DNA of 64,000 nucleotides from Scenedesmus sp. PABB004 (taxonomy: Eukaryota), in contig CM026547.1 of NCBI GenBank assembly GCA_014905635.1, positions 1,054,001 to 1,118,000 on the forward strand, given 5' to 3'. Both the position numbers and the translations under genes were made by a program. Below, one piece after another: positions 22,216 to 64,000 of this stretch. Under the pieces are notes generated by a model. It was not told the origin of the DNA, ran no database searches, and saw only the letters and a list, made by a program, of their open reading frames with translations. Positions within the stretch are counted from its first letter, which is position 1. Each line of letters opens with the position of its first letter.

Positions 22216-22280
<65 letters not shown>

Positions 22281-25200: not shown

Positions 25201-26839
25201 GATGACGAGCATGATGGACGTGCTGGAGGAGCTCTTCGCCCTGCGCCGCCACCGCTGGCTGCGCCTCGACGGCTCCACGCCCATCGCGGAGCGGCGCGAC
25301 CTCGTCGACGCGTGGCAGGGCGCCGGCGGCGGCGCGGGCGCGGGCAGCGGGGGCGGCGAGCCGTTTGTGTTCCTGCTGTCCACGCGCGCGGGCGGGCTGG
25401 GCATCAACCTCACCGCCGCAGACACAGTCATCTTCTACGAGTCCGACTGGAACCCAACCATGGACCTCCAGGCGCGCGCCGCGCCCCGCGCCGCCGTCGC
25501 CCCGCGCTGGCGCCCGCGCACCCGCCCGCGCACCCGCCCGTGCCGCCCCCCCCCCCCCTCCCCCCCCCCCCCCCCCCGCGCGCGCCCGCCGCGCCCCTGA
25601 CGAGCCGCCGCGCGCGCGCGCGCGCAGGCGATGGACCGCTGCCACCGCCTGGGCCAGACGCGGCCAGTGACGGTGTACCGCCTGGTGACGAGCGGCACGA
25701 TCGAGGAGCGCATCCAGTCCACCGCCGCGGCCAAGACGCACGTGCAGCGCCAAGTCATGGCCGGGGAGGCGGCCGGCGGCGGGGGGGGCGGGGGCGGGGC
25801 CGGCCGCGCCCGACGGCGGCGGCGGCGACGACGACGACGGCGACGACGACGCGGCGCTCGGCGGCGGCGGCCGCGGCTCGCCGTTGGGGGCGCGCTGCTC
25901 GTGGATGACGCGCCAGGGGCGGCGCTGGGCGCCGCCGACGTGGCCAGCCTGCTGCTGGACGACGACCTGGCGGCCGAGGCGGCCCGGCAGGGCCTCACGG
26001 TCGACCTCGCCGCGCTCGAGAGTGCCATGGAGCCCCTGTCCGGGCGCGACGCGACCCCGGGCGGCTCGGCTGGTGTTGTCGGCGCCGGCGCCGGCGGCCG
26101 CTTCACGCCCAGCCCGGCCGCCGCCCGCGGCGCGGCGGCGGCGGGCGCGCGCGCGGGCGCGCGCGCGGGCGCGGGCGGTCCCCTGGCAGCGCCGGCAGGG
26201 GGCGCGGGCGGGGGCGCAAGCCAGCCGAGCAGCCGGCAGGCCAGGCTGGAGCTGGCGGCTCGGAACCCTGGGGCGCCGGGTTGTGAACGCGGACAGCGTG
26301 TAACTGGAGCAGCAGCGACTTACAGCAACCCCAGGACAGCCCGCACCACGTCAGTTTGCAGTTTGCAACAAAAAGAGCAGGTGAAGCGCGGCGCCCCGCA
26401 GACGCGGTGGCGCGGCCGGTGCCGCCGCCGGTGGCACTGGCGCCGGCGCGTGCGCCGCATGCGTTGGCGATACGGGGTGGCCGCCACCATCGGCGCTCAC
26501 ACCCACACCATGATGATCTTATTCTCACCGGCCGCCGCCCGGCCGGTGCCGGGCCGCCGCCCGGCGCGGCACAGCGCCAGGCCGTTCATCTCCGGCCGCC
26601 AGGCCGCTCATCATCGTCCTCATCGCCACCTAGGCGGCCTGCCTGCCGCCGACTGCCAGCACAACTGTCAGGCCGTCCTGTCGGCGCGGCGAGCAATGCC
26701 GGCCGATGACGCTGCTGCTGCCTGCCAGCCTGAGCGACGCGGTACATGCGCCGCCAGCGCAGCCCACAGCCCACAGCCTCAGCCGCGTGTGGGCGCGTTT
26801 GTGCCCTCGTCCCGTCCCATCCCCCTCAGCAGCGGCTGA
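18332..26839 (+). CDS. INO80: INO80 chromatin-remodelling ATPase (SNF2 family, split ATPase); start and last exon boundary uncertain
   Basis: DBINO motif [67 protein letters not shown]; long insert; [55 protein letters not shown]. Four GC-AG introns and apparent frameshifts. Confidence 0.95.
21468..21537. repeat. 12-bp minisatellite (GTGCAAGGYGGR)x~6 in an INO80 intron
   Basis: Read directly. Confidence 0.85.
22214..22322. repeat. (GTGC)n / (GC)n microsatellite in an INO80 intron
   Basis: Read directly. Confidence 0.9.
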
Positions 26840-27727: not shown

Positions 27728-30700
27728 TCAAGGAGGGGGGCACTGGAAGCTGGGGATGACCAGGAAGGCGCCGGCGTTGTTCTTGGCGCTGTTGCTGCGG
27801 CAGCCGTTGGGCAGGCTGAAGCTCCCGGTGGTGAGGGGTGTGAACGCGGGGGTGTTGTCCGGGAAGCTGCCGTCGTGCGCCCACATGAACACGCGCTGGC
27901 CCGGTGTCACCCCCGTGAGCGTGATGGTGCCGTTGACCGGCACGCTCTCCCGCTTGAAGCACGCGCTCGTGGCCGTGGTCGTGCCCGCGCCGAGCGCGAC
28001 CCACGAGAGCGCCGAGCCGAGGCAGCGGCCGTTCCTAAGGGGCGAGCGGATGGTGACCGTGCCGACACCGCCGGGGCACGACGGGACGTAGTTGCCTGGA
28101 AGCTGGAACCAGCCCCGGTAGTAGTTTGAAGGCGCCAGGGGGGAGGGGGGCAGCGGGTTGGGCACGGTGCTGCCAGGGACCGCGCCGGGGACGCACTGGT
28201 CCTGCGGAGCGAGAGGCGCACGCGCGCAGGCGGGGAGGAGGTCAGCCGCTGCCGGGAGGAGGGGGGCAAGTGTGCAAGAACAGGCGAGAGGCAGCAGCCG
28301 CCAGCCCGCAGCGCCGCACCAGGCAGGGAACGTCGACCCCGCTGCTGGCGTTGGCGGTTGTGCCCTTGTTGGCTGTCACATTGACAGCCACCATGGCATT
28401 CAGCGGCAGGTAGGCCATGCAGGTCGCGTTCACGGTCGCCGTGCAAATCATGCTACCGTTCAGCGGCACGCTGGTCTCGGGGGGGCAGGTAATGGCCACA
28501 GAGCGGCCGTCGACGGTCAGGCGGGTGCTCGTGAGGCTCCACCGAGTGTTGCTGCCGGCGGCGGCGGAGTTGCTGACCACGGCGGTGTAGGTCACACTGC
28601 CTGGGGAAGCAGAGGGGAGGGGGGAGGGAGTGGGTGGGCGGCGTGAGACAGAGCGCCGAGGGCCCAGGCGCGAGCGATGTGCAGCGCGCGCGTGCATGCA
28701 GCAGGGCCAGTGCGGGCAGCGCACCTGGGGCGAGGGCGTTGATGTTGGGCCGGTTGGCGCTCAGCGCCACGGTGACGGCGGGGGTGAGCACCACAGTGAT
28801 GCTGGCCGTGTCGTTCGCGCTGATGGGCAGGCCGGCGACGTTGGATTTGCCAGAGGCAGTCACGCTCACGACGATGGGGTCGCCCACCTCAAACGTGAGC
28901 TGGTTCACGACGACCAGCAGGGGGCAGGTGACCGTGCCGCCGGGCGCGGCGACCGCGGCCAGGTTGCAGCCGCTGCCCAGCGAAGGGGTGGCCGTGAGGC
29001 CGCTCAGGCCCCAGTTGCCGGCGTTCGTGATGATCACAGTGCAGGTCACGGTTTGCGCTGCGCGCGCGCGCCAGGGCGGCGGGGCGTGAGCGTGCGCCGG
29101 CGGCCGCGCGGCAGGCGCCGCCGGCACCGCCCGTGGCCGCGCGCTCACCGCTGGTGATGCGTGAGACGGGGCAGCTGACCGTGACCGTGAGCTTGGGGTC
29201 GTACACGACCGCCACGTCAGCGGTCGCGTTGACGGGGCCCACGGCGGTGTTCTGGTTGGTGGCCACTCCGGCCGCGCTGGCCGTGTTGGTGATCTTGAGG
29301 CCTGTGCTGTAGGCGGCCTCAAACTCGGTCTGGGTGAACGTCTTGTTGGTGGTGCCCGTGCAGGTCTGGCTTTCGCCGGGTCTGAGCGACGCGCTGCTGC
29401 AGCTGAGGCCCGGCAGCATCGCATCCGAGACGGCCAGGCTCTTGACAGCCACGTTGCCGGTGTTCAATGCGATGATGGTGTAGGTCACCAGGCCTGCAGC
29501 GCCGCAGCGGGGCGGGGCGGGGCGGGGCGGGGCGGGGCGGGGCGGGGCGGGGCGGGGCGGGGCGGGGCGGGGCGGGGCGGGGCGGGGCGGGTGCGCGCAG
29601 CGGGTGGGCCGCGGCGGAGGGGGGAGGGCGAGCAAGAGCGCGCAAGCCCCCCGCCTGGCTGCTGCGCTCCCTGTCCCTGCCGGCGCGCCACGCCCCGCCC
29701 GCGCTCGGGCGCGGCTGCGCACCCGGCTCCGACAGGCTGGTCGGCGAGGCGGTCTTGGTCAGCACCAGGTTGATTTTCTGCTCGCCCGCCACGGTCGCGT
29801 TGGCGGTGGCGGTGGCGGTCTTGGTGGCGCTGGGAGTGGTGGTGGTGGTGATCGTGTCGGTGCCCGTGAACGACCTGGTGACGTTGCCCGCCTCCAGGTC
29901 AGCCTGCGTGACCGGGTAAGTCACCGTGCACGTCGCGTTGCTGCCGGGGTCCACGGCGGTGGTGGGGCTGCAGCTGGCGCCGTCCAGCGTGAGCACGCCG
30001 GGCACTGCGGCGCCGCGGCGGCAGCGGCGGCGGCGGCGGAGCGCAGGCGCGTCAGCGGCGCGGAGGGAGCGTTGGAGGTGCAGCGGCAGGCGCAGCAGCA
30101 GCACCCAGCGCGAAGCCCGCAGCCGCCGCGCCGCACGCGCCCGCGCCGCGCTGCGTGGTCTCACCGTTGCCGGTGTTGGTGAGCGTGGCGGTGAAGGTGA
30201 TCTGGTCGCCGACGCTGTCAAACTTGCCGTCGATGGTGCCGCCAGTCACGGCGGCGCTGACGGCCACCAGGATGTCGGGCCAGGCGTTGGTCGCAACCCA
30301 GGCAGAGGCGGGCGGTACAGTCTGGAGTGAGCCTTCGGCGGGGGCCGCACCGCTCAGCGACGCGGTGACGCTGATGTTGCCGGCCAGCAGGTCGGCGAAG
30401 ACAACGGGGTAGCGAACGCTGCAGGTGAGCGAGGCGCCGGGCGCGAGCGGCGCCGCCAGGTTGCAGCTGCTGCTGACCAGCACGGCGTTGCCGGTCAGCG
30501 TCACAGCGTTGGGCGTGAGCGCGACGTTGCCCGTGTTGTTGATGGTCAGGGTGAAGGTGACGTTGCCTGCGGAGGTGCACGTGGTGAGCGCCCGCCGGGC
30601 GGGGGCGTGCGGCGGGCGGCGGCCAGGCCCGACCGACCAGGGGCAGCGCGCCACAGCGCGCCGGCGCGCGCGGCGGTGCGTGCGCACCTGTCGCATTGAT

Positions 30701-32544: not shown

Positions 32545-35500
32545 TCAATCACCGCTCCTCGCAGCGCCGCTCGCGTCCTCCTCCTCCGCGGCTCTGGCCG
32601 GGCCCTCGCTCAGCCACGCCGCCAGCGCGGGCAGCTCCGGGGGGCCGGCGGCGTCGCTCTCGATCGCACCCTCGCCAGCGCCCTCGGCCGCCTCGCGCGG
32701 CACGCCCAGCTCCTGCTCCTGCTGCGCCTGCTGCTGCTGCGCCTGCTGCGCCTGCTGCTGCCGCAGCCGCGCCCGCTGCTCCGGCGGCAGCGCGGCCGCG
32801 TAGCCCGCGAACGCCTCGAGCTGCTGGCGCACCTCGGCCTCGCTGCGCTGCCGCACCAGCGCCTCGCCGTCGTCCGGGTCCTGCTGCGGCCGCCCCTCCC
32901 GCTGGTCGTCATCATCGTACAGCTCCTCCAGCAGCTCCTCGCTCACCTCCAGCACCCCGTCCGCCTCCAGCTCCAGCGCCGCCAGCAGGCCGTCGTCCTC
33001 GTCCGCGGCGCCGGCCGCGGTCGGGGCCTCCGCCGCCGCCGCGCCGCCGCCGCGCGGCCCCGCGCCGGCCGCGAGCGCGGCCGCGGCACGCGCGGCAGCG
33101 GCCGCGCCGGGCGCCACCAGCCCCAGGCGGCTGGCGCCCATCTGGTGCGCCCAGTGCTGCGCCGCCAGCGCGAGCTGGTGCGTCGTGCCGGCCTCCAGCG
33201 GCCCGTAGCGCAGCTGCAGCACCTGCGGCGTGTCCGGGCGGCGCGGCGAGCGCGGCGTGGCGTCCGGGCAGCCGGCGGGCCCAGCGGCCGTGCGGCTGAG
33301 CCCTGCGACGCCCCGCCAGGCCGCCGGGCGCCGCCGGGCGCCGCCGGCGCCGCCGGCGCCACCGCGCACCTCAAACAGCCCCCGCGCCGCCGCCTCGACG
33401 CGCGCGTCGCTGCCGCCCCAGCGCTCGTGCGCCGCCAGCAACAGCGCCGCGGCGCCGAGCAGGTGGCTGGGCCCGCCCGGCACAGCCAGCCCCGCGAGCT
33501 CCATGGCTGTGCCGATGGCGCCCAGGCTCCGCATCGCCGACGGCTCCGCCCCGAGGCGCACCGTCGCGAGCAGCGCGTGCGCCTGGTAGATCGAGGCGTG
33601 CGCCCAGCCGGCGACGCGCGGCGGCGTGGTCGGCGCGTCCACCTGCCGCTCCAGCTGCTGCACCGCGCCGCTGAGCGCGGCCGCCGCGGACGCGAGGGCG
33701 CCGCCGTCGCCGGCCGCCAGCGCGGGCGGCACCTGAGGCCCCAGCCGCGCGGCGAGGGCGTTCGCAGCGAGCTGGCTGCGCTCCACGACGGGGCCCAGCT
33801 CCGCCTCGGCGGTGCAGCGCTCGCACCTGCGTGCGCGCGGGGGTGGCGGCAACGGCCGGAAGCGCAGCGCGTCGCGAGCCGGCGGCCGCCCGCGCCGTGC
33901 GACACGGCGCAGCTGCCCCGCGCGCCGCGCAGCAGCCGCCCGCGCACGCGCGCGTGCGGCGCACCGGCAGGTGAAGCCCCAGCGCTGCGCCAGCGCGGCG
34001 CGGCGCCGCTCGCGGTGCACCATGCTGCCCTCGGCCCCCGGCGCCAGGTAGTCCAGGGTCACCTCATCGCCTGCCTTGAGGTCTGTGACGGCGCGCACCA
34101 GCACAAAGGGGCCCTCCCCGGGACGCGCCGACACAGCGAGCGCGGCCTCGCGCTGCAGCCCCGCGCCCGCGGCGGCGCCGCCGCGCCGCTCCGCAGACCC
34201 CGCGCCAGCCGCGCCGCGGGCCCACGGGTTGGTGGGGCCGCGCGCTCCGGCGCCGGCGCGGCCGCCGCGCCGCGGCGGCCCCTGGCCGGGCGGCGCCGGC
34301 GGCGGCGGCGGCGCGGGCTGCGGCGGCAGGCCGCCAATGAGCACCGCGACGGCGTTGGGCGCGCAGGAGTGGTTGAACGCTGCCAGCAGCGGCCACAGGC
34401 CCGTGAGCGACGCGGGGCGGTCGCCGCGCACGCTGCACACGGGCAGGTCCTGGGCCATCTCGGCGAGCGCGTTGCGGCACACCAGCGCCGCGAGCCGCTC
34501 CGGCGGCATGCCCAACGCGCCCGCCGCCGCTGCCGCCGCCGCCGGCACGAGCTGCTGCGGCCGCGCGGCGGCGCCCGGCGCCTCTGGCCCCGCGGTGCAC
34601 TCGAGCAGCTCAAGCAGGTCGGGCGTGCGCCGGCGCTGCCCGGACGCGCCCGGCGCCGCGAGGCCCGCGCCGCGGGGCCACGTCGCGGCCGCCGGTGGCT
34701 CGTCTTCGCACTCACGCTCGCCGTCGCCGCCGCCCCGGCCCTCGTACAGCGCGTCACGCTGCTGCAGCTTCGCGCGCAGCTCGCGCTGTGAGCGCTTGAT
34801 CGCCGCGCTGCGCGACGCGGGCAGGCTGCTCGCCGCCGCGCCGGGCGCGGCGCCCTCGCCCGCGGCGGCCGCGGCGAGCAGGCGGTCGTTCGCCGCCGCC
34901 GCCGCGCGGTCCGCGGCCGCCGCCTCGTGCTCGGCGTCCAGCACTGGCAGCGAGCACAGGCTGTGCAGCACGTCGCGCTGCCGCGGCGTGAGCTCCACGC
35001 CCGCCAGGTGCTGCATCAGCGCTTCCAGCCGCGGCGGCCGCCCCGGCGCGCCCGCGACCCACGCCAGCGGCGGGCAAGCCGCCAGCAGCGTGCCCTTGGC
35101 GATGTCGCGCGCGGCGACCACGCCGTAGCCCCTGCCTGCGGGCGGGCGGGTCGGGTCAGGCGGGCGGGTCGGGCGCGGGCGCGGGGCGTCGCGCGCTGCT
35201 GCCGCGTCGCCGACTGCCGCGCGCCGCGCCCCGCCGCCGCCGGCGCACCCGGCGCCCAGTGGAGCTCCAGCTGGTCCACGTGCGCTTGAGGGAAGGCCTG
35301 CTGCACGTAGAGGCGGTTCGCCTCGGAGAGCAGCATGCGCGGCTCGCCGTCGGCGACGCCGCGGTCGAGCCCCAGCCGCCGCACGGCCTCGCCGACGTCC
35401 TCCTCGTCGTCCCACACCTCTCGCGTGACGTCAGCGAGCCCGTCGCTGGCCCCCCGGAGCGCGCGCGCGGCGCGGCGGCCACGGCGGCGCTGCTGCGCCC

Positions 35501-35916: not shown

Positions 35917-36918
35917 ATGCAGGCGCCGGCGGCGGCGCCGTGCGGGCGCCCCGCCCCGCCCACCCGCGCCCCGGCCCAGCGGGGCGAAGCAGCAGCAGCG
36001 GCAGCAGCGGCCGGCGGCAGCGGCCGGCGGCGCGCGCTGCTCGCGGCGGCAGCGGCGGCGCTGCAGCAGCAGCTCGCGGGACGATCGGCGGCCGCCGCGA
36101 CATGCGCCGCCGCCGGCGCGTCCGCTCCGCAGCGCCTGTGGGTGCTGCCGCCGCGCGGCTGCCTCGCGCTCGGCGACGTGGGCGCCGACTACGACGGCTA
36201 CGCGGCCACGTACGACGCCCTCGACGGCGGCGCCGCGTCGGCGGCGCTCGGCTTCCCCGGGCTGCGCCGCGCGCTGCTGGCGCAGGCGTCTGGCGACGCG
36301 CTGGAGGTCGCGGTCGGCACGGGGCTCAACCTGCCGCTGTGGGACTGGGCGTCGCTCGCGTCGCTCACGGCGCTCGACCTCTCGCCCGGCATGCTCGACG
36401 CCGCGGCGGCGCGCGCGGCGGCGGTGCAGCCCGGCGCCGGGGGCGTGCCGGTGCGGCTGGTGCAGGGCGACGCCGCGGCGCTGCCGTTCGACGACGGCAG
36501 CTTTGACGCGGTGGTTGACACGTTCAGCCTGTGCGTGATGGAGCGCCCGCAGGCGGCGCTCGCAGAGTTTGCGCGCGTGCTGCGCCCTGGCGGCCGCCTG
36601 CTGCTGCTCGAGCACACGCGCAGCGACAGCCCGCTGCTCGGCGCGTACCAGGTGGGGCAGGCAGGAGCGAACGGAGGGCGCGGCTGCGGCGCCGGCAGGC
36701 GGCTGAAACGTTGGAACGCGCCGCTGATCGCCTCCGCCGCCGCCCCTGCTGCCGCGCCGCAGGGCGCCACGCGCGGGCTGGTGGCGCCGATCAGCAAGGG
36801 CTGCGACTGGGCCCAGGACGTGCCGGGCATGGTCGCGGCGCTGCCAGGGGTGGCCGTCACCTCGCAGCAGCGCCACCTCGCGGGCACGCTGGTCAGCATC
36901 TCGGCGCAGCGCTTGTAA
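35917..36918 (+). CDS. Class I SAM-dependent methyltransferase (Methyltransf_11/UbiE-like), 2 exons
   Basis: LEVAVGTGLN, LDLSPGML, GDAAALPFDDGSFDAVV, RVLRPGGRLLLLEH; intron ~36652-36762; transit-peptide-like N-terminus. Confidence 0.9.
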   Translation: MQAPAAAPCGRPAPPTRAPAQRGEAAAAAAAAGGSGRRRALLAAAAAALQQQLAGRSAAAATCAAAGASAPQRLWVLPPRGCLALGDVGADYDGYAATYDALDGGAASAALGFPGLRRALLAQASGDALEVAVGTGLNLPLWDWASLASLTALDLSPGMLDAAAARAAAVQPGAGGVPVRLVQGDAAALPFDDGSFDAVVDTFSLCVMERPQAALAEFARVLRPGGRLLLLEHTRSDSPLLGAYQVGQAGANGGRGCGAGRRLKRWNAPLIASAAAPAAAPQGATRGLVAPISKGCDWAQDVPGMVAALPGVAVTSQQRHLAGTLVSISAQRL

Positions 36919-41487: not shown

Positions 41488-44400
41488 ATGCCCGGGCGCG
41501 CACCGCCGCGGCGTGCCGCGGCGCTGGCGGCGCTCGCGCTGCTCGCGGCGGCGGGCAGCGCGCTCGGCCCTCGCCCCGCGGCGGCGACCAAGTGGACCTG
41601 GTTCGTGTACATGCTGGCCGACAACGACCTGGAGCAGTTCGGGCTCATGGACATGGAGGTGCGGAGGCGCGCGGCCGCGAGCGAGCGCCGCTGCCGCGTG
41701 CGGCCAGTCGCGTCCCGCGCCTTCGCGCTGCGCGCCGCCTCGCGCACGCGCCGCCTCACGCACGCGCGCGCGCGGCGCGCAGGAGATCATGGCTGGCATG
41801 TCGGCGGAGCCGCCGGGCTGCGTGAGCGCCGCGTGCGGCGCGGCCTGCCCCGCCGGCACGGTCGCCACGTACTCGGCCGCCTGCCCCGGCGGCGCCGCGC
41901 CGCGCTGCTGCCCGCCCGAGGCCTACCCGGACGTGCTGCTGCTGGTCGACCGCGGCTCGGGGCAGGCCGCGAGCTACGTCGCCGGCGCCGCGCCGCACGG
42001 AGACTACAGCCTGCTCACGACCGAGTGGACGACCGCCAAGGAGCTGCTCGCGCTGCCGGGTGGGTCGGCGGGCGGAGGGGCGGCAGCGGCCTCTCGCGCG
42101 CGGCGCGGCGGGGGCCGGGCGCCGGCGCCGCCGAGCACCGCGCCGCGCCGCGCAGGCGGGCAGTGGCAGCAGCTGAAGGACCACGCGGAGCTCGACCTCG
42201 CGTCGCCGGCGGTGCTCGCAGACTTCCTGCGCCGCGGCCTGCAGCGGTGCGCGTGCGCGCGCGTGCGGCCGGCGCCGGGAGGGCGCCGCCGCGCCGGCTG
42301 CTGCAGGCCCCGCCCGCTCATGATCAGCGCGCGCGCCCGCGGCCCCGGCCCACGCACACGCACACGCACACGCCCGCGCCCGCGCCGCCACCCGCGCGCA
42401 GCTTCCCCCCGAGCGCTGACCGCAAGTACATGCTGGTGTTCTGGGACCACGGCAGCGGGTGGTGGGGCTACGGCGTGGACCACACGTGCGGCGTGGTCGA
42501 CGCGTACAGCAGCTCGCGCGGCTGCGACATGCTCACGATGCGCAAACTCGCGCAGGGTGCGGCGCCGCGCGGCTGTCTGTGTCTGTGTGTGCGCGCACGC
42601 GCGCGCCCCCGCAACGCCGCGCCCGCTCACACGCCGCTCCCACGGCGCTCCCGCGGCGCCGCCGCGCGGCGGCGGGCAGGCCTGTCGGACGGGCTGGTGC
42701 ACCCCGACAGCGGCGCGGCGGTGAAGCTGGACATCATCGGCTTTGACGCCTGCCTGATGTCCATGTACGAGGTCGCGTCCACGCTCGCCCCCCACGCGCA
42801 CCACCTGCTCGCGAGCGAGCTGCTCGAGCCGGGGCACGGCTGGGACTACGCGGCGCCGCTCGCGGCGACGACGGCCGCCGGCGGCGCGCTCGGCAGCGCC
42901 GGCCTCGCGCGGGCCGTCATCGACGGCTACCTCCAGCAGGCGCGGCCGGTGCAGGGTTCTGGGCGTGCGCCGCCGCCGGCCTGCGCGCGCGTGCGGGCGG
43001 GGCGCGCGCCGCGCGCCTGCTGCGGCCGCCCCCACCCGCGGCCGCCGGCGGCGCGGCGGCGCGCGCAGGCGGCCGCGTACGAGACGTCCGGCCTCACGCT
43101 CGCGCTGGTCGACCTGGGCGTGGCCGGCGGCGCGCTGGAGGCGGGCGTGGCGGGGCTCGCCGCGTACTTGGCACGCCAGCTTGCCGCCGACCCGGGTGCG
43201 CGCGAGCTGCAGCCGGCAGGCCCAGGGGCGGCGCAGCGCATGCGCGCGCGCGGGGAGGGCCGCGCGCTGAGGGCCGGCCCGCCGCCGCGCTGCAGCGTAC
43301 GCGATGCTGCTCCTGCGCCGGCGCGCCGCGCTGGGCAAGATCTCGGGCGCCGAGGAGAACGGTGCGCAGGGCCGTGGCGCACGCCGCGCGCCCGCGGCCG
43401 CGCGCGCGGGGTGGGGCAGCGCGCCCGCCCAACACCAACGCGCGCGCGCGCCCCGCAGTCGACCTTGGCGCGCTGCTGGCGGGGCTGCGCGGCCTCGACG
43501 GCTCGCCCGCGCTCGCGGCGGCGCTCGCGCCCGCCCTCGACGCCTACAACGGCAGCGTGGCCGCGTTTGACCGCGACGCCGAGCTCGCCGACGTGCGCGC
43601 GCCGCCGAAGCACGCGCGCGCGCGCCGCCGCCCCACGGCTCACGCCCCCTCACACCCCCTCACGCCCCCTCACGCCCCTTCACGCCCCCCACGCCCGTCC
43701 CTGCCCCCTGGCGCCTTGCAGGGCTCCGGCGTGGCCATCTACTTCCCCAGCTCCGCGGCGGCGCTGTCGCCCGCGTACGCCGGCTTCACCGCCGCCGACC
43801 CGACCGCGCTCTCGGGCTGGGCCGCCTTCCTGGACGCCATGTATGCCGCGACCGCGGCCTACACCAGCGACCCGCTGCTCGGTGCGCGCGCGCGCCGGCC
43901 GCGCGCAGCTGCGCCTCCGCCGCGCCCGCCCGCCCGCCTGCCACGCGCGCCTGCTGCACACACGCCGCGGGCCACGCCGCGCAGCTGACTTTGGGTTTGA
44001 GGAGGCCAGCGCCGCGCCGTACCTGGCGGTCTCGACCGGGAGCTGGGTCACGCACGGCACGCTGACCAACCACATGGGCCTCACGTCGGCGCTGCTCTAC
44101 GGCTTCCGCTCGCCCAGCAACACCCAGTTCATCACCGCCGGCAGCGCCGAGGCGCAGCTCCAGGGCAGGCGCGCCGCGCCGCGGCCGCGCCGCCGTCGCG
44201 CGCCGCGGCGGGGCGCTGCGCGCCGCGGCAGCGCGCTGCGCGCTGCGCCGTGTCCGACTCGCAACCGGCGCGGCTGCCATCCCCGTGCGCAGGCTGGCGG
44301 TGGGCGCGTGGTCGGGGTACCTCTTCGGGCTGCTGCAGGACGTCTCGCCCGGCGACGGCGCGGTCGACGGCCTCGCGCTCGCGCACGTCGACGAGGCGCG

Positions 44401-52579: not shown

Positions 52580-54875
52580 CTAAAAGTACAGCCGCTCCTC
52601 GTCGTCAGGAGCAAAGGGCCCCGTATCGGCGGGGAACAGCGCCGCCGCGGCCGCGCCGCGTGCCAGCATGTCGCCGCGCACCAGGCGCGCGCCGCTGGCG
52701 TCGCTGCCGGCCTCGCCGGCGCCGCCCAGGCCCACCAGCGACTGGCAGGACGCGGCGCTGGGCGCGCTGCTCGTCGCGCTGCAGGGCGAGCCGCCCTGGC
52801 CGTCCGCGGCGCCGCCGCCGGGCATCGACCCGAGCGGCGGCGCGCCGTCGCCGCCGCCGCCACGCACGGCGCAGCGCAGCCGGCTGGGCCGGGGCGGCGC
52901 GCGGCCGGGCAGCGGCGCGTCGGGGCTGGCGTCGCTGCTGTCGAAGCAGGGGCCGTCGATGACGCAGCTGCTGCCGCGCGCAAACGCCTGCGCATCGAGC
53001 AGCACCGCGTAGCCGCTGCCGCCGCTGATGTGGCAGCTCGTCGCCTGCGGGCGAGCGCGGGCGAGCGCGGCCGGCGCGCGTGTGACGGCGTGGCGGGCGG
53101 GGCGGGCGGGGGCGGCCGCGGCCTCGCTGCGGCGGCGCCGCCCCGCAGGCGCACACGTGCGCGCGCGCGCGCACCTCGCACGTCGCCGCCTGCCAGAGCC
53201 ACACGCCGCCGGCGCAGCCCGTGACCTCGACGTGCTTCAGCACCGCGCTGCCCTCGTCGCCGACCTCCACGCCCGCGCCGCCGCAGCCCGCGACGGTCGT
53301 GTTCGTCGCGTGCAGCGCGCCCCGCTCCAGCACCACCAGCCCGTCCGCGCCGGCGTCGGCGACCGTGCAGCCCTCCAGGAAGGCCTGGGCGCTCTCGCAC
53401 ACGAGCATCGCGTGCTGCCCGCCCGTGAGGCTGCAGCGCCAGAGCGTGGAGCTCGACGACCCGGCCTGCTTGATGCCGCAGCGCCGCGCCTGCGCGGCGC
53501 GCGCGGGGCGGGCCGCGGCGGGCGGCCGTCGGCGCGGCGCCGGCGCGGCGGCGGCGGCGCGCGCGCCGCGGCCTCGGACGCGCGCGCGGCGCGGCGCGGC
53601 ACGACGCGGCGCGGCGCCCGCGCACCACGATGGTGCACCCGTCGAGCAGGGGCTGGGCCTTGCCACCGACCGCGAGCGCGTCGTCGCCGCTGCACGAGAG
53701 GCGCAGGCAGCGCAGGACGGGCTTGATGCGCGCCGAGGCGTGGCTGACGCACACGGCCTCGCAGAAGCCGACCATGTCGACGGTGAAGTCGCGCAGCACG
53801 CAGCACCTGGCGGGCGGGCGGGCGGGCGGGGGGACAGACGGCGTGCGCGGGCAGGGGCGGGGGCGGGGGCGGAGGCGGGGGGACGCGTCGGCGGCGCGGC
53901 ACGCGCAGGTGAGTGTGTGCGAGCGTGTGTGCAGCGCGGCGCGCGCGTGCAGCGCGGCGCGGCGCCTGCGCACGCCTGTGGATGGCAAGGGCCGGCTGGT
54001 TGGCGCGGTGGTCGAGCACGACCGCGGCGGCGTCGCCGCCCAGGCCCTCGACCAGCACGCGCTGCCGGACGGTCAGCGTGGCCTGCGCGGCCGGGGCGCA
54101 GGCGGCGGCTCGGGCGCCGCGGCGCGGGCGGCGCGGGCGGCGCGGGCGGCGCGCGCGGCGCGGGCGCGGCGCGGCGCGGGCGGCGCACCTGCGAGACCAC
54201 GTGCGTGCCGGGCAGCAGCTGCACCACGTCGCCGTCGACCGCCGCGGCGAGCGCGTCGGCGAGGCTCGTGAAGCTCAGGCCGCCCGCCGCCTCCGCGCCC
54301 TTGTCGCCCGGCAGGCCCAGCCACACGGTGCTCGCGTCGCAGGGCAGCACCTGCGCGGCGCGGTGGGCGCGGCGCGGTGGGCGCGGCGCGGTGGGCGCGG
54401 CGCGGTGGGCGCGTCGCGGCGGGCAAGCCGCGCGCGGGACACGCGTGCGCGCCGGCGCCGGCGCCGGCCGCACCCGCAGCGTGCGGCCGTCGAAGCCGAT
54501 CAGGTCACCCGCCGCGGCGGCGTGCATGCAGATGTCGTCGACAAACTCGGCGTGCGCGCTCGCGCTCCTGCGGCGGGTGCGGCGGGCGCCCGCGTCGGCC
54601 GAGGCAGCGCCGTGCCGCAGCGCGCGCGCGGGCACCACCCCAGCGCCGGCGCGGCCCAGGCGTGTGTGTCGCGGCGCGCCGGGCCCGCACCCGCCAGAGG
54701 CAGCAGCCTGGTCGGCGCGCGCCGCCGTGAGCGCCGCTGCCCACTGCTTGGTCTCGAAAAGCCTGCGCGGCGGCGCACCGGCTGCGTTGGCCTGGGCTCG
54801 CGCTCGCAGCGCGGCTGCCGGGCGGGCGCGCGCCTCGCACCTGCGCGCTGAGGAGCTGCGAGCGTGTGCTGCCAT
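52580..54875 (-). CDS. Right-handed beta-helix (pectin-lyase-like, SKIP5/FBXO11-type repeats) protein, ~8 exons
   Basis: SLADALAAAVDGDVVQLLPGTH; repeats LEGCTVADAGADGLVV, NTTVAGCGGAGVEV, HVEVTGCAGGVWL; no signal peptide; one GC-AG intron; ends EERLYF*. Confidence 0.82.
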
Positions 54876-55311: not shown

Positions 55312-55316
55312 TTACA
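55312..55316 (-). terminator. TGTAA polyadenylation signal of the truncated dynein gene
   Basis: Chlorophyte poly(A) signal ~180 nt downstream of the TAG at 55494. Confidence 0.55.
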
Positions 55317-55493
55317 CCTGCCGCGGGAGCTCGTCGGGCCGCTGCCATGACAGCCGAGGCCTCAGTCGGCGAGCTGCACCACGCCGGCAGGCGCGCGCGT
55401 TGCGACGCGGCGGCGGACCGACCGCGCGCGCGCGCCCGAGCCGCCGACGCCGCAGCCCCCGCGCGCAGCCCCCGCGCGCCGCCCCCGCGCGCC

Positions 55494-58400
55494 CTAGTGG
55501 CAGCCCGGCGCGTCGCCCGGGAAGAGGCCGGCGACGACGCCGTTGAAGAGGGGCACGTCGTTGGCGAGGAGCTTGCACTGGTTGACCTCCACCAGCGCGC
55601 GCAGCACGAGCGCAAGCTCGCCCTCCCCCGGCGACGCGCGCCTGAGCGCGCCCGCGGACCGCAGCACCGCCGCCACCGCGCGCATGCCGCAGTCGTAGCA
55701 GCGGTCCTGGCTGGAGAGCTGCTCGCTGCAGAGGCGGTGCGCGGCCACGATCCTGCGCGCGCACTCGCGCGCCTGCGCGGCGCCGCGCGGCGCGGCCGGC
55801 GGCCGGCGCTCGGCCCGGATCTCTCGCAGCCGCGCCCCGCGCAACCGCCCGCCCGCTCATGTGGTCACAGCACGCACCTGCACGTAGCCGCTTGACAAGA
55901 GCATGACCTCAGCGATCAGCGCGACGTCGGGCACCGCCTGGCGGCGCCGGCCGGCCAGGCGGCGTGCCGTGAGCCCAGCGGGGACACCGCGCCAGGCCGG
56001 CGCGACGCAGCGCTCAGCGCGCGGCGCGCAGCGCCGCGTGGTCGCAGGCTTGCGCGGCGCGCACCATCGCGACGGTGCGGAACAGGGCCTTGAGGCTGTC
56101 CGGCAGCTCGCTGCGGCCTACGTGGCAGCGGCGGCGGCGGCCCGGGGGCGGCTCGGCGCGCGCGCGCGCGCGCGTGCGCGCGCGTGCGCGCGAGGCGCAG
56201 CCGGCGGGGAGGGCGGCGGCCTGCGCCCACGCACGCCACCGACGCGCGCCGCGCAAGCCCGCCGCACCGGCGCCGCTCGTGTCCACCGTGGCAAATACGG
56301 CGCAGCTGTGGCGCAGCGGCAGCGTGGTGCCCTCGAAGGTGAACGAGCGCAGGCACGCTCTGACGGCGAGCTGGACCTCCATGACCTGCTGCGCCACGAC
56401 CGACAGCACCTGGGCGGGCGGGCGGGCAGGCCGTGGCGGCGCGCTCACTCTGGCGCCTGCGCCGCACAGCACTCGCGCCAACGACGACGCCTGCCACCCC
56501 CACACGCGCATGCCGCCCACCTTGAGGTCGGCGCGGTTCAGCTCGTCAAAGCACGCCCACGCGCCGCTGGCTGCGAGGCCCTTGCACAACGCGGCCACCG
56601 CGAGGCAGTCGAGCGCGCCGGAGCAGCCGAGCACCACACACTGCCGGCCGAGCGCCTTGGCGAGGTCCCTGGTCGCCTCCGTGCCCCCGGGCCTGCGGCG
56701 CGGCAGCGTCGGCGGGCTCGGACGCCCAGCGGGCCGCGCCGCATGCGGCGCGGTGCGCACCGCACGCAGGGCGCGCTAGTCTGCACGCGCGCCCCGGCCC
56801 GCCGCGCAGCGCAGCCGCCGCCGCCGCCGCCGCGCGCACCCCTCTGACGCGCCGCCGAGGCCGAGGTGCACCGCGCCGATGAGCGCCTGGCGGTGGCAGC
56901 GGTCGGTCAGCGGCGTCACCACGAGCCGCCCGCTGTTGCCCAGGTACTCGTACCCGTAGTCCGCCTGCGCCATCCAGGGGGATGGGGATATGGCAGGGGC
57001 ACGTCGGGCGCGCGTGCGCGCGCGGCGTCGGCCGCAGGCCGGGCGGCGGCGGCCGCGCCGGGCGGCGCCGGGCCCCCCGCCGCCGCGCAGCGCCACCCGC
57101 GCGCGTCGGGCCACCCACCCGGGCATCCATCATGCGCACGACGATGGTCTTGCCGCCGTCCGCGCCGCCGGCGCGGCCGCCCCGGGGGGCCTCGGCGTCC
57201 TCCCAGTACGTGCGCAGGCAGGACAGCCAGCTGAAGTGCTCGGGCTGGCCCTCGATGCCCTCCTCCGCAAGCGACGCGGCCACGTCCCGGGCATGCACGT
57301 CCATGACCACCAGCGCGCTCAGCGTGGCCCTGCCGCGGCGGCGGCGGCGGCAGCCGCGGGCGCAGCGGCGCGTGAGCGACGGAGGCGGCGAGGCGAGTCA
57401 CGGGCGCCCGGGCGGCAGCAAACCCCGCTCCGGGCGCAGGCGCACCGGTTGAGGTTGGACAGCTCGCCGCGCACGAGCTCCACCACCTCGCCCAGCTGCG
57501 CGGTGCAGCGCGCCGCCACGCCCGCGAGCGCGCCCCGGCCGCCGGCCGCCGGCGGCGCAGGCGGCGCGGCGGCGTCGCCGCCGCCGGGAGCGGGCGACGC
57601 AATCGCCTCGGCGACCTCCTGCGTCCAGTAGATGCCCGACACCGCCAGCACGACCTGCCCCGGCCACGCCATCGCCCACGCGGCGCGCGGCGTGGCTGGG
57701 TAGGCCTCGGAGGCGCGCCGGCACACCTCCTGCAGGCTCTCCACCATGCCCGCCTCGACCTGGAGGGCGCAGGCGCAGCGGGGGCGGCGCAGCATCGGGC
57801 CGAGCACGCTCGCAGCAGGGCCGTCGCTCGGCGCGGCGGCGGGGCGGCGCCCGACGGCCGGCACGCGCGCGCCGCGCGCCGCGCTCCGCTGCCGCCGCAC
57901 CTGTGCCAGCCACTTCTCCACGGCGCCGTTGGCGTCGGCCGGGCGGATGCGCGTCTTGAGCGGCACCAGCTCGCCCTCCGCGCTCAGCATGCCGGTGACG
58001 TCGCCGTTGGGCTTGAACCTGCGTGGCGCCGGCGGGCGGCCGGGCGGCGGTGCGCCGTGGGCGGGCGCGCGCTGCGTGGCGCGCGCCGCGCCCGCAACCC
58101 CCGCCCCGCCCCGCGCGCGGCGCGGCGCGCACTGCAGGCGGTCGATGCCCTCAAACGCCTTGCGCAGGTGGGGCTGCACACGCATGGGGTCCTTGGCCTC
58201 AGCCAGGACCTCCAGCACCTCGTCATTGGAGAGGAAGAAGAAGCTGCGGGGGCAGGCAGGCGGCGGCAGGGGTCAGGCCAGGCCAGGCGAGCGAGCGCGC
58301 GCGCGGGGCGGGGCCGGCGGGCGCGGCACGGCGCGGCGCGGCGGGCGGCCCGCGGCCGCGCACCGCGGGAAGGCGAGGCGCTTGACCTCGAGGAACGCTG

Positions 58401-61400
58401 CCAGGCCCTGCGCGGGGTGTCAGCGGCGTGCGGCGGCGCGGTCACACGCACGCACACCCGCGCGCGGCGCCGAGTCCGTCTGAGCTGGGCGTCACCAGCC
58501 CTCCAGGGCCAGCCCAGGGCAGGGCTCCTGCCTCGCGGCGCGCCGCCCCCCGCTGAGCGTGTGCACGCGCCTTTTGGATCTCCTCCAGCAGCTTATTGGC
58601 CTCCTCGAGTCGCGCAACGCGCTCGGGGTCGTCTGCGAGGCCGAGCACGCTGGGCGCCGCCGCCGCGGCCTCCATGAGGTCGCGCCACGCCGTGTCCGCC
58701 TGCGCGGCGGCGCGGGGCACGCGGCGCGGCGCGGCGGGCTCCTCAGCCCGGCGCCCGGCGCCGCCCCGCGCCGGCCCGCCGCGGCTCGCCGGCCCGCCAA
58801 GGCCTCTGCGCGCCGGCGCCGCGCGCCGCGCCTGCGCAAACTTGTCGCCCTCGTCGGGCATGTGCCTGAGGACGTCGGGGGCGCTGAAGATCGGCCCCAG
58901 GTGCTGCCACGCCGCCTGGCAGGCGAGCCAGGCGCTGATCAGGTCCTGCGCGGCCAGCAGGCGGCGCTCCCAGGCGAGCAGGTCCGCCTCGAGCGGCTTG
59001 ATGAAGGCGCTCGCCCGCATCGCCTGCGTGCGGACCACCTGGTCGTCCAGCAGCACCTGCGCGCCGGCGGCGGCGGCGCAGCACGCCGCAGGCTGGTCAG
59101 TGGTCAGCGCAGGCAGCTGAGCAGCTCGCGCCGGCGCCCCACGCGCGCGCGCGCGCCTGCACGTCGTCGGTGCCGCAGATGACACTCGTGCCGGAGTCCT
59201 TGTACTCCGCGATGCGCAGCGCCACGCCCTCCCAGTCGGCCTGCATGCGCGCGAGCGCCGCGTCCAGCGCCGCCTCCTCGCTCGCCGCCGCGCCGACGCC
59301 GCGCAGGCGCTCGAGCTGCTCCAGCAGGTCGAACTGCAGCAGCTGCCGGATGCTGAACGACGCAAAGCCTGGCGCGGGCGGCGCGGTTGGAGCGCGCCGG
59401 TCGGGGCGGCGCGCAGCCCGCACCGGGTCCGCCGCTGGCGGTCGCAGCCGCACCCACCCCGCGGCGCGCCGCCGCACCCGCGCCGGTGTCGTCGCGTGGC
59501 GGGATGTCTGCGCCGATGATGTCAAACATCTCCCGCCAGTGCCGCGCCCGCAGCGCGGGGTTGCCCAGCTCCGCCACCAGCGGCAGCAGCTCCTGCGGGC
59601 GCCGGCGGTGGCGGCAGAGGCGGCGGCGGCAACGGCAGCAGCATGTGAGGGCCGCGCACGTGTGCGCGCGAGTGCACGAGCGCGGATGTGGGAGCCGGCG
59701 GCGGCGCGCGCACCTTGAAGTCGTCCACCACGTCCTTCAGCCGCGCCGCGACCGCGTCCTGCGCGCGGGCGCCCGGCGCAGAGCGGCGTGCGGCGGGGGC
59801 GGTCAGGCTGCACGCAGCGAGCGGCGTTGCGCGAGCCCGGCCGGCGCGGCGCGCGCGGGCAGGTGCACGCACGTCCTTGTTGGCCTTGACGGCCCTGTCG
59901 GCCTTGGCCGCGTAGTCGTCCACCTCGGCGCGGACGGACTCGACGTCGAGCAGCACGCGGCCGTCGTCGTCCAGCACCGGCTCCTCCGTCCAGCTCCGGC
60001 TCTGCTCCAGGAAGTCCCGCACGTTGCGCCACAGCTGGCGGGCGCGGCGCGCGGCGCGGCGTCGGCGTCGCCCTGCCCACCGCGGGGCTCTTGGGCGCCC
60101 CGCCGGCGCGCGCGCAGGCTGCACGCAGCCCAACAAACAGGGGCTGCGTGCTGCTGACAGCGTGCGCAGCGCGGGTCACCTGGTACCGCGCATTGACCTC
60201 CTTCTCAGTGACCATGAGTGCGCCGAGGTCGTCCGGCGGGGCCTCAAAGAGGGCCAGGTAGGTGTTGTACTGCCCCAGCGCCTCGCCCAGGCCGCTCACG
60301 GACTGCAGCAGCGCCTCCAGGTCCGCCACGACCTCGTCGGGGTCCGCCGCCGCGTCGACGTACTTGCCTGGCGCGGCAGGCGGCGGGCGGCGGTGGCGGT
60401 GCTGGGCGCGAGCGCGGGGCGGCGGGCGCCGGCCGTCGCCGTGCGGCCGCACCCGCGTGCAGGCCGTCGGTCAGCGCCGCGAGCTCCTCGTTCACCGACG
60501 CCACGCTTGCGGCGAGCGTGGCGGCCTGGGCCTCCCTGTGGTCGGCGATGAACTCCTTGCCCTGGCACGGGACAAGAGAGGAGGGCAGGGCAGCGGGGGC
60601 GGCAGGGCGGGCAAGGGTCGAGGTTTGGTGGAGTGGCGCGCTGTGGCGCGCGGCAGTGCGGCGCGCGGGCGCGCGCGGGCGCGCGGGGCGCGCGCGCCTC
60701 TGTGAGCTGCGCCTGGAACGCGGCGAGCGCGTCGGTGAGGTCGTCGTGCTTGACCTGGTCCGCGGTCGGCACCTTTTGCTCGTGCGCGGCGAGCGACTCA
60801 TACATGTCGTCCACCTGGAGGGAGGGGCGGCGCGTGGGCGTGGTGGGGCTCTCGCCGCGACCAACCTGGAGCTCCAGACCCGCGCCCGCAAGCCCCTGGC
60901 GCGCCGGCAGCCCGCGCGGCGACGACCGCACGCGCGTCCGAGGGAGGCCCGGCGCCGCACCGCCACGCCGCCGCACCTGGCCGACCTGGCTGGAGAGCAG
61001 CTTGCGGTCGTTGAGCTGCGCCGCGTGGAGGGACATGTAGGCCACAAACTCGTCCAGCTGCGCGGGGCGCGCGGCGAGCATGGCGCTGCGCGCGGTGATG
61101 TCCTCCAGCACCGCCAGCGTCGCCTGCGCGCGGCGGCGCAGGTTGCGGCGGGGGCGCGGGCGCACGCGGTGCGCGCCCGCCGGGCGTCGGCCGGCATCGC
61201 GCGCACGCGCGCGCACCTGGCGCGCCATGTTGAGGAGCAGCAGCTTGATGCGCTCCAGCGCCGCCGCGGTGACGGGCACGAGCTCCGCGCGCAGCGGCTT
61301 GGCGTCGATCTGCAGGCAGCCGGCGGCGATGCTGGTCCGCATGCGCTCGAGACTGGCCTTCCAGTTGCGCTGCATGACCAGGTCGCGCCGGATCTCGCCG

Positions 61401-64000
61401 AGGCCGCGCGGCTGCGCCGCGTACGCGTCACCGTCCCAGGTGCGGCCAAAGTCCCAGACCTTGCGGTAGCCCGCCTCCAGCTCCTGGACGCCGGCGGGGC
61501 GGGGCGGCCGGGCGGCCAGGGAGGCGGGCGGTGAGCGGCGAGCTCGCCGCTCGAGCGGCGAGGTGCGAGCGCGAGGGGCCCGCCGCGGCGCGCGCGCTGC
61601 GCAGCGTGCGGTGTGAGGGCCGCCCCGCCCCGCGCCGCCGCGCCGTGCCGCACCCGCGCCGCGTCGCGCGCGGCGGAGAAGTCGTCGATGATGGCCTGGT
61701 TGATGGCGCCGCGCTGCGACAGCAGGCGCGGCGTGGACCGCAGGATGGCGAGCGCGTTGAGCCCGCTGGGCTTGCCCTCAAACAGGTGCGCAAACGCGCG
61801 CATGAACAGCACACGCGGCGCGCCCTGCCGGGGTGCGGGGCGGCGCAGGGGTGGGGCGGGACGAGGGAGGTCGGCGGGGCCCCAAGAGGCCAGAGCGCGG
61901 GCGCTCGGCGCGGCGTGGGCCTCCCAGGCGCGCCTGCACGACCGACAGGATGCCCTCCAGCGTGTTGGCGTTGACCGCCTCCAGCACGGCCGCCTCGGCC
62001 GGCGCAAACGACACGCCGCCGCGCTCCTCGAACGACACCAGCACCGTGAACAGAGCCTTGGCCTGCTTGTCGCCCTGGCGCGCCAGGCAGCGACAAACAG
62101 CGCCTCGGCGCGCGCGCTGCGTTGGCTCTGATCACCCGTCGCCCACACACACGCGCCCGGGCGCCACCCCGCACCTGCTGCTTGTGCGCCGTGAGCAGGG
62201 CGAGCACGTCGTCCACCGCCGCGACCGCGGCGGCCATGAGCCCCTCGACGAGCAGCAGGTCGGCCAGCCGCACAAACGCGCCCAGCTGGCCCAGCTCGGC
62301 CATGACGCGCGCGTAGTTGGCGGCGCGATCGACCTTCTCCTGCGCACATTTTTGCACGCGGGCAGCGTGTGCGGACGCGGCGCTCAGCGGGCAGCGCGCG
62401 CTCCGCGGGGCGGTCCCCCGCCGGGAGGCCCCGCGGCTCTCCTTGGCACGCGGCCGCCCCCAGCACGCCGCGCCGCGCCGCGCCTGCTTTATGACCACCA
62501 TCGGCCGCGCCCGCCCGCCGGCGGCGCCGCCGCCCTGGAAGGGCTCCACGCCGGTCGTGTCGGCCAGCTCCGCGGCGTCGCGCACCGACTCGGCGTACAG
62601 CGCCGCCTGCGCCGCGACGTCTCGGCACAGCCGCTCGAGCGCCTGCGGGCAGGCCGGTTGGGGGCGGGGTCGGCGCCCGGCGCCCGGCGGCTGCGCTGCC
62701 GCCTGGCAGGAGCGCGGCTGGGGCCGCGCGACAGACTGGCAGCGGGCCAGGGGGCCACTGATTGGGTACCTTTTGGACTTTGTCCACGATCGCGTCCAGC
62801 GCAGGCTTGGCCTTCTGCTCCCGCGTGGCGACCTGCAGCTCGCCATACTCCTGCGCCGCGCGCGCCGCCGCGGTGGGCGCGGCACGCGCCGGCGGCGCCC
62901 CCGCGACCCTACGCCGCCCGCACCTGCAGCGTGTACGTGTGGCTGGGGTTGGCCCACGCGAGGCTCACGCCGCGCAGCTGCGCGGCCGCCGCCGCGACCT
63001 CGCGCAGCGTGGCCGCAAACGTCAGCCGCCCGCCAAAGAGCTTCGCCTCCACCTGGGCGCGCACGCGCCTGAAGTTCTTGCGCCGCACGCCCTGCCGGCG
63101 CCGGGAGCGGGCAGCTCGTGGGCACGGCGCGGGGGCGAGGCGCGGCCGCAGGGCGCAGCGGCGCGGCGCGGCGCGGCCCCCGCCGCGCGCCGCGCGCCGC
63201 ACCCGGTGCCAGCGCCCAAACGCGCGGCGCGTGAGGAAGTGGCGGAAGAAGCCGATGCGGCTGACGGTGTCAAATAGGCTGCTCGACCGCACCCACGCCG
63301 CGAGCGGCACAAACTCGGCCGCCGCGCCGCGGCGCACCGCGACGACGCCGTTGGCGGACAGCGTGAAGTACTCGGGCAGCCGCCCGAGGCCCTCCCGCGC
63401 CGCGACGCGCAGGTCGTACGGCCGGAAGCGCGCGCCCTCCGGCGCGCTGGGCGCGGGGACACGGCGGCGCGGCGGCGCGGCGGCGCGCGTGTGGGCGGGC
63501 GGGGCGGGGGCGGCGGCCGCGGCGACCCTGCGGCTCAGCGCAGCGCCCTGCTGCGTGCCGCCCGCCCGCTCACCGCACGCAGTAGAAGAACTTGACGGGG
63601 CTGTCCTGCCCGTGGCGGCCGTAAAAGGCGACCACGTCCTCCCCCGTCACCACGCCGGGCACCGCGTCGGGGTCCGCGCCGCCGGGGGCGGGGTCGGCCG
63701 GGGCCGCGGCCGGCCCCCAGCAGCCGCCCGGGCTGCCGCCGCCGCCGTCGCCGGCATCCACGTCGGCCGCCTCGCCGGCCTCCGCCTCCCAGTCATCACC
63801 AGGCTGCTCCGGCGAGTCGGCGCGCGGGCGCTCCGCGTCCGACCACGCGTCGCGCGCCGCTGCGGCGCCGTCGTCGCCGCATCTGATGAGCTCGCCGCGC
63901 GGCTGCGGCTGCGGCGGCGCATGCTCCGCCGCCGGCCGGATCGGCCCCTCGCCCGACTTGCGCAGGCTGGCGGCGACGTCCGGCAGCCGCGGCACGTGCG
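55494..64000 (-). CDS. Axonemal inner-arm-type dynein heavy chain, C-terminally truncated after a degenerate AAA1; 5' end outside the window
   Basis: Tail FRPYDL...[10 protein letters not shown]; linker [82 protein letters not shown]1 [25 protein letters not shown]; stop after [10 protein letters not shown]; about 30 introns. Confidence 0.92.

Follow-up and report, generated by a model that had tools for sequence, protein, structure and literature searches.

The loss and erosion of flagellar dynein genes are well known, and in the Chlamydomonas I1 mutants dynein heavy chains (DHCs) that have been cut short reportedly still assemble into the axoneme. Such I1 heavy chains without a motor domain are described in PMC3031465. 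Kollmar 2016 (PMC5100056) reports that DHC1 is split in Basidiomycota and that Chlorella has lost inner-arm dyneins, and records seven DHC pseudogenes that are fragmented. As for the Sphaeropleales, their motile stages are called 'not dominant or not known' in one source (PMC5966456), and according to another (PMC12571836) all examined members keep cilia genes, which may point to a cryptic motile stage or be nonfunctional. Here we describe a DHC gene of the alga Scenedesmus sp. PABB004 that runs through the tail and the linker, stops inside a degenerate AAA1, and is followed by no further motor sequence in the 64 kb analysed. This whole stretch, which we call the window, comprises positions 1,054,001-1,118,000 of the forward strand of CM026547.1, and all coordinates given below are relative to it.

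The locus resembles each of the described systems in part. Its tail, linker and AAA1 are collinear with those of full-length single-headed inner-arm DHCs (DNAH3/7/12 and the Chlamydomonas chain 8GLV_Mm), but unlike them it has no AAA2-AAA6, stalk, microtubule-binding or C-terminal domain in the window, and its AAA1 lacks the Walker A lysine and the last 58 profile positions. As in the Chlamydomonas I1 mutants (1-alpha or 1-beta without the motor domain), the heavy chain would be without a motor; the dynein of those laboratory mutants, however, is two-headed and belongs to a flagellate, whereas here the truncation appears natural, the class is single-headed and AAA1 is by its motifs dead. With the split cytoplasmic dynein of Basidiomycota (Ustilago Dyn1/Dyn2 type) it has in common that the gene for the heavy chain breaks off inside the motor region (PMC5100056), but there both halves are present and expressed and make a working motor, whereas here no second half lies in the window and the ATP site of AAA1 is destroyed. 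The likeness to eroded flagellar genes and DHC pseudogenes of flagella-losing lineages is the loss of a flagellar dynein motor in a group with no known or rare motile stage (PMC4438323, PMC5100056 and PMC12571836); the DHC pseudogenes on record are 'highly disturbed and fragmented', whereas in this gene frame and splice sites are undamaged over 30 exons, with not a single frameshift or stop, and neither the tail nor the linker has speeded up. A thin literature search, which is no proof of absence, brought up no paper on a heavy chain that lacks its motor by nature.

The retained part of the gene is laid out as follows.

55494..63998, minus strand: in-window part of the truncated DHC gene (homology-guided model of 30 exons and 29 introns, 1,623 codons plus TAG)
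60180..63998, minus strand: tail, exons 1-13 (tblastn to residues 189-860 of P0158, aligned 63653-60162)
57119..60034, minus strand: linker, that is the DHC_N2 region and the stretch up to AAA1, exons 14-24 (Pfam DHC_N2; P0158 residues 880-1385)
55497..56964, minus strand: AAA1, degenerate and cut short, exons 25-30 (Pfam AAA_6, profile positions 44-269 of 327)

The reference P0158 is a full-length DHC of 4,234 amino acids in which Pfam recognises every motor domain. The model was built from ungapped anchors taken from 16 reference proteins, followed by a frame-consistent splice-site search between the anchors, so that the exon borders are predicted; the gene extends past the window edge at 64000, so that its 5' end is missing. 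Its 4,869 coding bases, from 63998 to 55497 on the minus strand, contain no in-frame stop, and the introns, of 73-170 nt, are GT-AG in 24 of 29 cases and GC-AG in the other five, with consistent phase in all 29. The product aligns with P0158 residues 189-1655 in a single collinear blastp alignment at 42.8% identity. Among the open reading frames (ORFs) of the minus strand, Pfam finds DHC_N2 in three (59097-60470, 58442-59521 and 57319-58272; E 2.8e-09 to 3.6e-26) and AAA_6 in two, the last match lying in ORF 55494-55856; DHC_N1 itself was not matched, though the tail aligns with P0158 and 8GLV_Mm. Codon-position composition, which is independent of homology, gave the same picture, with G+C of 0.93-1.0 at third (GC3) and 0.3-0.6 at second (GC2) codon positions in the exons and no periodicity in the introns; the signal equals that of the neighbouring genes in strength and ends at about 55510.

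The G+C content is about 80% across the whole window, and its last 11 kb alone hold 101 ORFs of at least 60 amino acids, all six frames being largely open. Open frames by themselves are consequently uninformative, and we judged the intactness of the gene by splice sites and frame. For the same reason an argument of the sequence-only reading of this DNA, that the lack of obvious stops upstream favours a translated product, is void. None of the marks of a unitary pseudogene (frameshifts, premature stops, broken splice sites) was found in the 30 exons of the retained part. The number of introns with a length divisible by three (13 of 29, about 10 expected) was judged unremarkable. A first crude gene model, which had skipped small exons, was superseded, and a supposed 16-residue insertion with a 57-nt intron before the last exon was rejected, as a normal 105-nt GT-AG intron (55877-55773) lies there, at the same position as in P0277.

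The rest of the motor was sought in the whole window with full-length and partial proteins. P0158 aligned in 16 collinear pieces, from 63653 to 55515, that cover residues 189-1655, and its residues 1656-4234 gave only one stray match in the 64 kb (E 5.2). Twelve partial dyneins were also compared with the window; the 10 that reach beyond the LFPG motif, carrying AAA2 to AAA4, stalk or AAA5, stop aligning at 55509-55533, and their later parts, searched at E ≤ 50, gave only scattered, non-collinear noise (best E 0.13). AAA2 to AAA6, the stalk, the microtubule-binding domain and the C-terminal domain were thus not found within the window, and what the sequence-only reading had said of the absence of AAA2-AAA6, stalk and microtubule-binding sequence is borne out with P0158 and the ten partial DHCs.

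What is left of the motor has itself changed, at two sites above all.

56671..56692, minus strand: Walker A remnant G-PGGTEAT (GPAGTGKTETT in the references)
56269..56292, minus strand: sensor-1 block ATVDTSGA replacing ITMNPGYA

The catalytic motifs (sensor-1 and the like) are named here as is usual for AAA+ proteins. In seven of seven reference DHCs the Walker A motif reads GPAGTGKTETT, and here GPGG---TEAT, with three residues deleted, the lysine among them; in the alignment with solved axonemal dyneins from PDB the GG of our gene falls on the GK of GKTETTKDL, and no reading of the flanking intron restores GKT. The sensor-1 block, ITMNPGYAGR in the references, is rewritten, and the conserved block H-YDYGMRAV is altered, while Walker B (DE) is retained. 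In the AAA1 columns that are invariant in all other sequences (n=135), 31 are changed and three more deleted, whereas nine other DHCs change 0-9.8% of them. The deviations start in 21 of 34 cases from F, Y, M, I, N or K residues, which is a shift towards GC-rich codons, and the length changes (one deletion of three residues and two insertions of one) are all in frame. High G+C alone does not explain the changes in AAA1, since an INO80-like gene in the same window, at about 80% G+C, keeps an ATPase motif identical to that of human INO80. By its motifs, AAA1 of this gene is catalytically dead, and with the Walker A lysine and the sensor-1 block lost there would be no ATP-driven motor even if a partner gene existed.

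The GC donors of the gene bear on how its 3' end is read. All five working ones have the form AG|GCGCG, in the introns that start at 61933, 60697, 59156, 58831 and 58570 on the minus strand. The INO80-like gene has at least two GC-AG introns with the same donor (20766 onward, and 25472-25627, plus strand); one donor follows GLGKTVQ, and the other, confirmed by motif continuity, lies between DWNPTMDLQ and AMDRCHRLG and splits a conserved helicase motif. We therefore take GC-AG introns as normal in this genome and reject the idea that the GC donors of the DHC gene reflect splice-site decay. As an observation in its own right, GC-AG introns that carry this fixed donor occur unusually often, making up 5 of the 29 introns of the DHC gene and at least two in the INO80-like gene.

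The 3' end and the spacer behind it hold the following elements.

55515..55516, minus strand: apparent former splice donor, ancestral GT and now GC, one base into the Gly codon of LFPG, at the divergence point of three relatives
55494..55496, minus strand: TAG stop, six codons behind LFPG (D-A-P-G-C-H)
55422..55493, minus strand: 13-nt GC-rich tandem repeat directly behind the stop, like low-complexity intron sequence elsewhere in the window
55312..55316, minus strand: TGTAA, probable poly(A) signal, 177 nt behind the stop
52580..54875, minus strand: unrelated downstream gene, right-handed beta-helix (Pfam PF13229, coding periodicity, crude gene model; plausible start at ATG 54873-54875)

The gene ends within the small subdomain of AAA1, at AAA_6 position 269 of 327, with the last 58 profile positions gone; in P0158 the LFPG motif ends at residue 1655 and AAA_6 extends to 1713. 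In the sequence-only reading the frame stopped at TAG 55494, a TGTAA followed at 55312 and an unrelated gene began at 54875; all of this holds, the ATG at 54873-54875 opening a long frame with a Beta_helix domain. The same reading had the gene ending cleanly after AAA1, which is wrong, and it overlooked both the dead state of AAA1 and the apparent old donor at which the gene ends. Among 13 relatives of the last exon, 10 continue with DLFPGV.LP..DY and three (P0271 from Monoraphidium neglectum, P0277 and P0282) diverge right after LFPG, with the tails GGG, GGRWAACW and EWRWRSL. Judged from these read-through translations, a phase-1 intron that starts G|GT right behind LFP appears to be present in the three. 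At this point our gene has GG|GCGAC, a context unlike the AG|GCGCG of the five working GC donors, and read-through gives GDAPGCH and then TAG.

TGTAA is the expected poly(A) signal of chlorophytes. It occurs 10 times in the window (1649, 5592, 6215, 6306, 17460, 26299, 26320, 36914, 50426 and 55312), against 2.79 expected (3.6-fold), a count reached in none of 100 dinucleotide-preserving shuffles, and where checked it lies at the 3' ends of genes (for example 26299 and 36914, both plus strand). At the shuffled rate, a TGTAA would fall by chance on the appropriate strand of the 620-nt spacer with a probability of about 0.014. Two gene ends elsewhere in the window are only 20 nt apart, marked by a convergent TGTAA pair at 26299 (plus) and 26320 (minus).

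As to its origin, the tail exons at 60722-61483 matched chain Mm of 8GLV with E 1.1e-35 among the PDB chains, the next chain having 2.7e-06, and the AAA1 exons found their best matches in DNAH12, DNAH7, DNAH3 and Chlamydomonas inner-arm chains. By these similarities the gene is the remnant of a single-headed inner-arm axonemal DHC of the DNAH3/7/12 group, and its closest solved relative is Chlamydomonas 8GLV_Mm. Of the named proteins, one from the sphaeroplealean green alga Monoraphidium neglectum comes nearest, with 69% identity in the last exon; the tail exons are 77-97% identical to environmental exon fragments. A search for related loci with an alignment returned no conserved stretch; with a single tail protein it gave one metagenome contig (L001, 1,844 nt, 69% identity), which is too short to reach AAA1. 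Two candidates for tail-only relatives, P0142 and P0157, were rejected because Pfam shows them to be incomplete gene models that skip AAA1, and the odd C-terminus of P0117 was rejected as a truncation because it is an out-of-frame read. P0117 and P0292, high-GC dynein fragments of other organisms, share the same out-of-frame switch (EDDPAVRDDRRAARADD) just behind or shortly after LFPG, which looks like an artefact of gene calling or a frameshift artefact and not a truncation.

Relative-rate tests, in which changes unique to our gene or to a relative were judged against an outgroup in triplets, showed that strong acceleration is confined to AAA1, with tail and linker balanced against other dyneins. 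Our gene had 13-23 unique changes in the last AAA1 exon where the relatives had 0-7 (45 of 45 triplets), 14-17 against 2-4 in the middle exons (4 of 4), and 32-70 against 4-26 over the whole of AAA1 (18 of 18). The linker was about equal in 15 of 18 triplets (ours/relative, for example, 45/45, 43/41, 43/49 and 13/15); the three unequal ones gave 70/51, 53/87 and 86/33, and in the last of these the relative and the outgroup, at 56% identity with one another, both stand much further from ours. For the tail exons and their close relatives, with P0122 as outgroup, ten triplets summed to 36 changes in ours and 52 in the relatives, the fragments being 64-87% identical to ours (up to 93% in other outgroup sets), and the tail exons are as near to the relatives as the relatives are to one another. 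Six counts on long tails gave 82/62, 56/57, 3/5, 6/9, 3/7 and 8/19. Identities by domain agree with this result. That of our gene with P0158 is 0.35 in the tail, 0.45 in the linker and 0.64 in AAA1, and that of an ordinary dynein, P0117, with P0158 is 0.36, 0.58 and 0.86.

We favour, at about even confidence, a real and old truncation that would have left a motor-less tail-plus-linker protein still under selection. Since tail and linker are slow and exons and splice sites intact, the truncated product is most likely still selected, and the roughly 30-45 extra replacements in AAA1, with no faster change in tail or linker and no broken exon or intron, fit selection better than uniform neutral decay. 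The sequence-only reading had left the choice between a tail-only scaffold and decay from the motor end, leaning to a translated product; intact exons and introns, normal rates in tail and linker and an accelerated AAA1 favour the retained non-motor product, and decay keeps a probability of its own, to which we return. The course of events may be pictured as follows. A rearrangement or deletion would have broken the gene in the phase-1 intron behind LFP-G; with the former donor now GC in a poor context, the message would read six codons on to the TAG and be polyadenylated at TGTAA. After the death of the motor AAA1 would have drifted towards GC-rich codons, as its rates suggest, and meanwhile tail and linker would have changed no faster than in working dyneins, with no exon or splice site broken. 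The product would stay selected as a motor-less structural or docking protein that uses its tail and perhaps its linker, possibly filling a place or acting as an adaptor in an axoneme that is seldom formed, or in a new role unrelated to flagella. In a more specific form, which we put forward tentatively and with somewhat less than even confidence, the gene could specify a natural 'pseudo-dynein', consisting of tail, linker and a dead AAA1 stump and maintained by selection for a task other than that of a motor, in an alga whose relatives include forms with no known flagella.

Several observations weigh against continued selection on the truncated product. The end in the middle of the AAA1 small subdomain looks accidental and is no tidy domain boundary, and we know of no role for a linker without its AAA ring. 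The tail has slightly more changes than its relative when this is P0158 (82 against 62), and it violates 10 of 53 invariant columns (18.9%), though this lies within the 2-28% range of other DHCs. The linker violates 9 of 59 (15.3%), where most other DHCs have 0-4.8% and two outliers 25% and 50%, so that some relaxation outside AAA1, in the linker, is possible; conversely, its conservation may mean that the truncation is recent and younger than the death of AAA1. The tail and linker comparisons were made at 35-50% identity, where saturation blunts the test, the orthology of the short environmental fragments is an assumption, and the exon borders are predictions. GC-biased gene conversion could also have acted as a local accelerator of AAA1.

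Among the alternatives, an ordinary unitary pseudogene caught early fares best, and we consider it unlikely. The alga would have no known motile stage, and one of its flagellar genes, no longer of use, would have lost its 3' two thirds, the retained part not having suffered a frameshift or splice break yet. That the motor and the ATP site of AAA1 are gone, that the gene ends inside a domain and that violations in the linker are somewhat raised (9 of 59) is what such a gene would show, and at 80% G+C, where stops are rare, an open frame is cheap; the setting also fits, with motile stages 'not dominant or not known' (PMC5966456), cilia genes that may be nonfunctional (PMC12571836) and DHC pseudogenes on record (PMC5100056). 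Under uniform neutrality, however, damage would be expected over the same time in the roughly 4 kb that code for tail and linker and at the 58 splice dinucleotides as well, yet all 29 introns are usable and in phase; the roughly 30-45 extra residue changes of AAA1 have no comparable excess in linker or tail, and all three length changes (the three-residue deletion and the two single insertions) kept the frame.

That the remainder lies elsewhere, and the gene has its full domain set, is rather improbable in our estimate. It would be separated from the part described here by a misjoin in the GC-rich repetitive intron behind LFPG or, as in the cytoplasmic dynein of Basidiomycota, by a genuine split, of which the DHC1 genes in PMC5100056 are documented cases. 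The break does fall in an apparent intron, the first 70 nt of which are a 13-nt tandem repeat prone to misassembly, and GC donors are used in this genome; yet the context AG|GCGCG, common to the five working GC donors, is missing at the old donor, the window contains no N, and the TGTAA 177 nt behind the stop (with its chance of about 0.014) is followed by a normally spaced next gene. With the Walker A lysine gone from AAA1, moreover, a split or full-length version would still be no working motor.

A truncated segmental duplicate, a redundant 5' copy free to decay while an intact parent persists elsewhere, seems to us less probable again. Truncation at an intron and decay of AAA1 are compatible with it, but a redundant copy should decay along its whole length, whereas the acceleration is confined to AAA1 and the tail exons stand as near to their relatives as these do to one another. 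Very improbable, finally, is a fusion gene in which the GC behind LFP-G still acts as donor and is spliced to the downstream gene to give a dynein-tail/beta-helix chimera: the two genes do lie on the same strand about 620 nt apart, with frame-compatible AG sites at 54869-54870 and 54848-54849, but by chance alone every third AG would fit the frame, the donor lies in a poor context and TGTAA stands between them.

If the truncated product is indeed under selection, selection would be acting on a function that dynein tail and linker can carry out without the AAA ring, such as docking, scaffolding or the sequestration of light chains. A product that is made would be a natural test of tail and linker without the ring, and would also mark a flagellar biology that is cryptic or vestigial among sphaeroplealean algae; if none is made, the locus would be a well-dated snapshot of a giant gene dying from its 3' end under extreme GC pressure. 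In either case the motor and the ATP site have been lost while 30 exons, tail and linker are intact and change at normal rates.

Further genes lie in the same window. The INO80-like chromatin remodeller (18717-26050, plus strand) has DBINO, SNF2 and Helicase_C domains, with canonical ATPase motifs at 80% G+C, and its introns carry long (GTGC)n, (CA)n-like and poly-C/CCA runs. Other coding segments at 9809-10444, 36130-36660 and 42418-42954 (plus strand) and at 34339-35127 (minus strand) gave matches to DUF4485, a class I methyltransferase, a clostripain-type C11 peptidase and, weakly, a SET domain. The minus strand at 29165-30564 encodes repeated DUF7507/DUF11-like domains, whose family is typically found in the surface proteins of prokaryotes, and around them, from 26 to 32 kb, the G+C content falls to about 0.72-0.73 and the GC skew is strongly positive.

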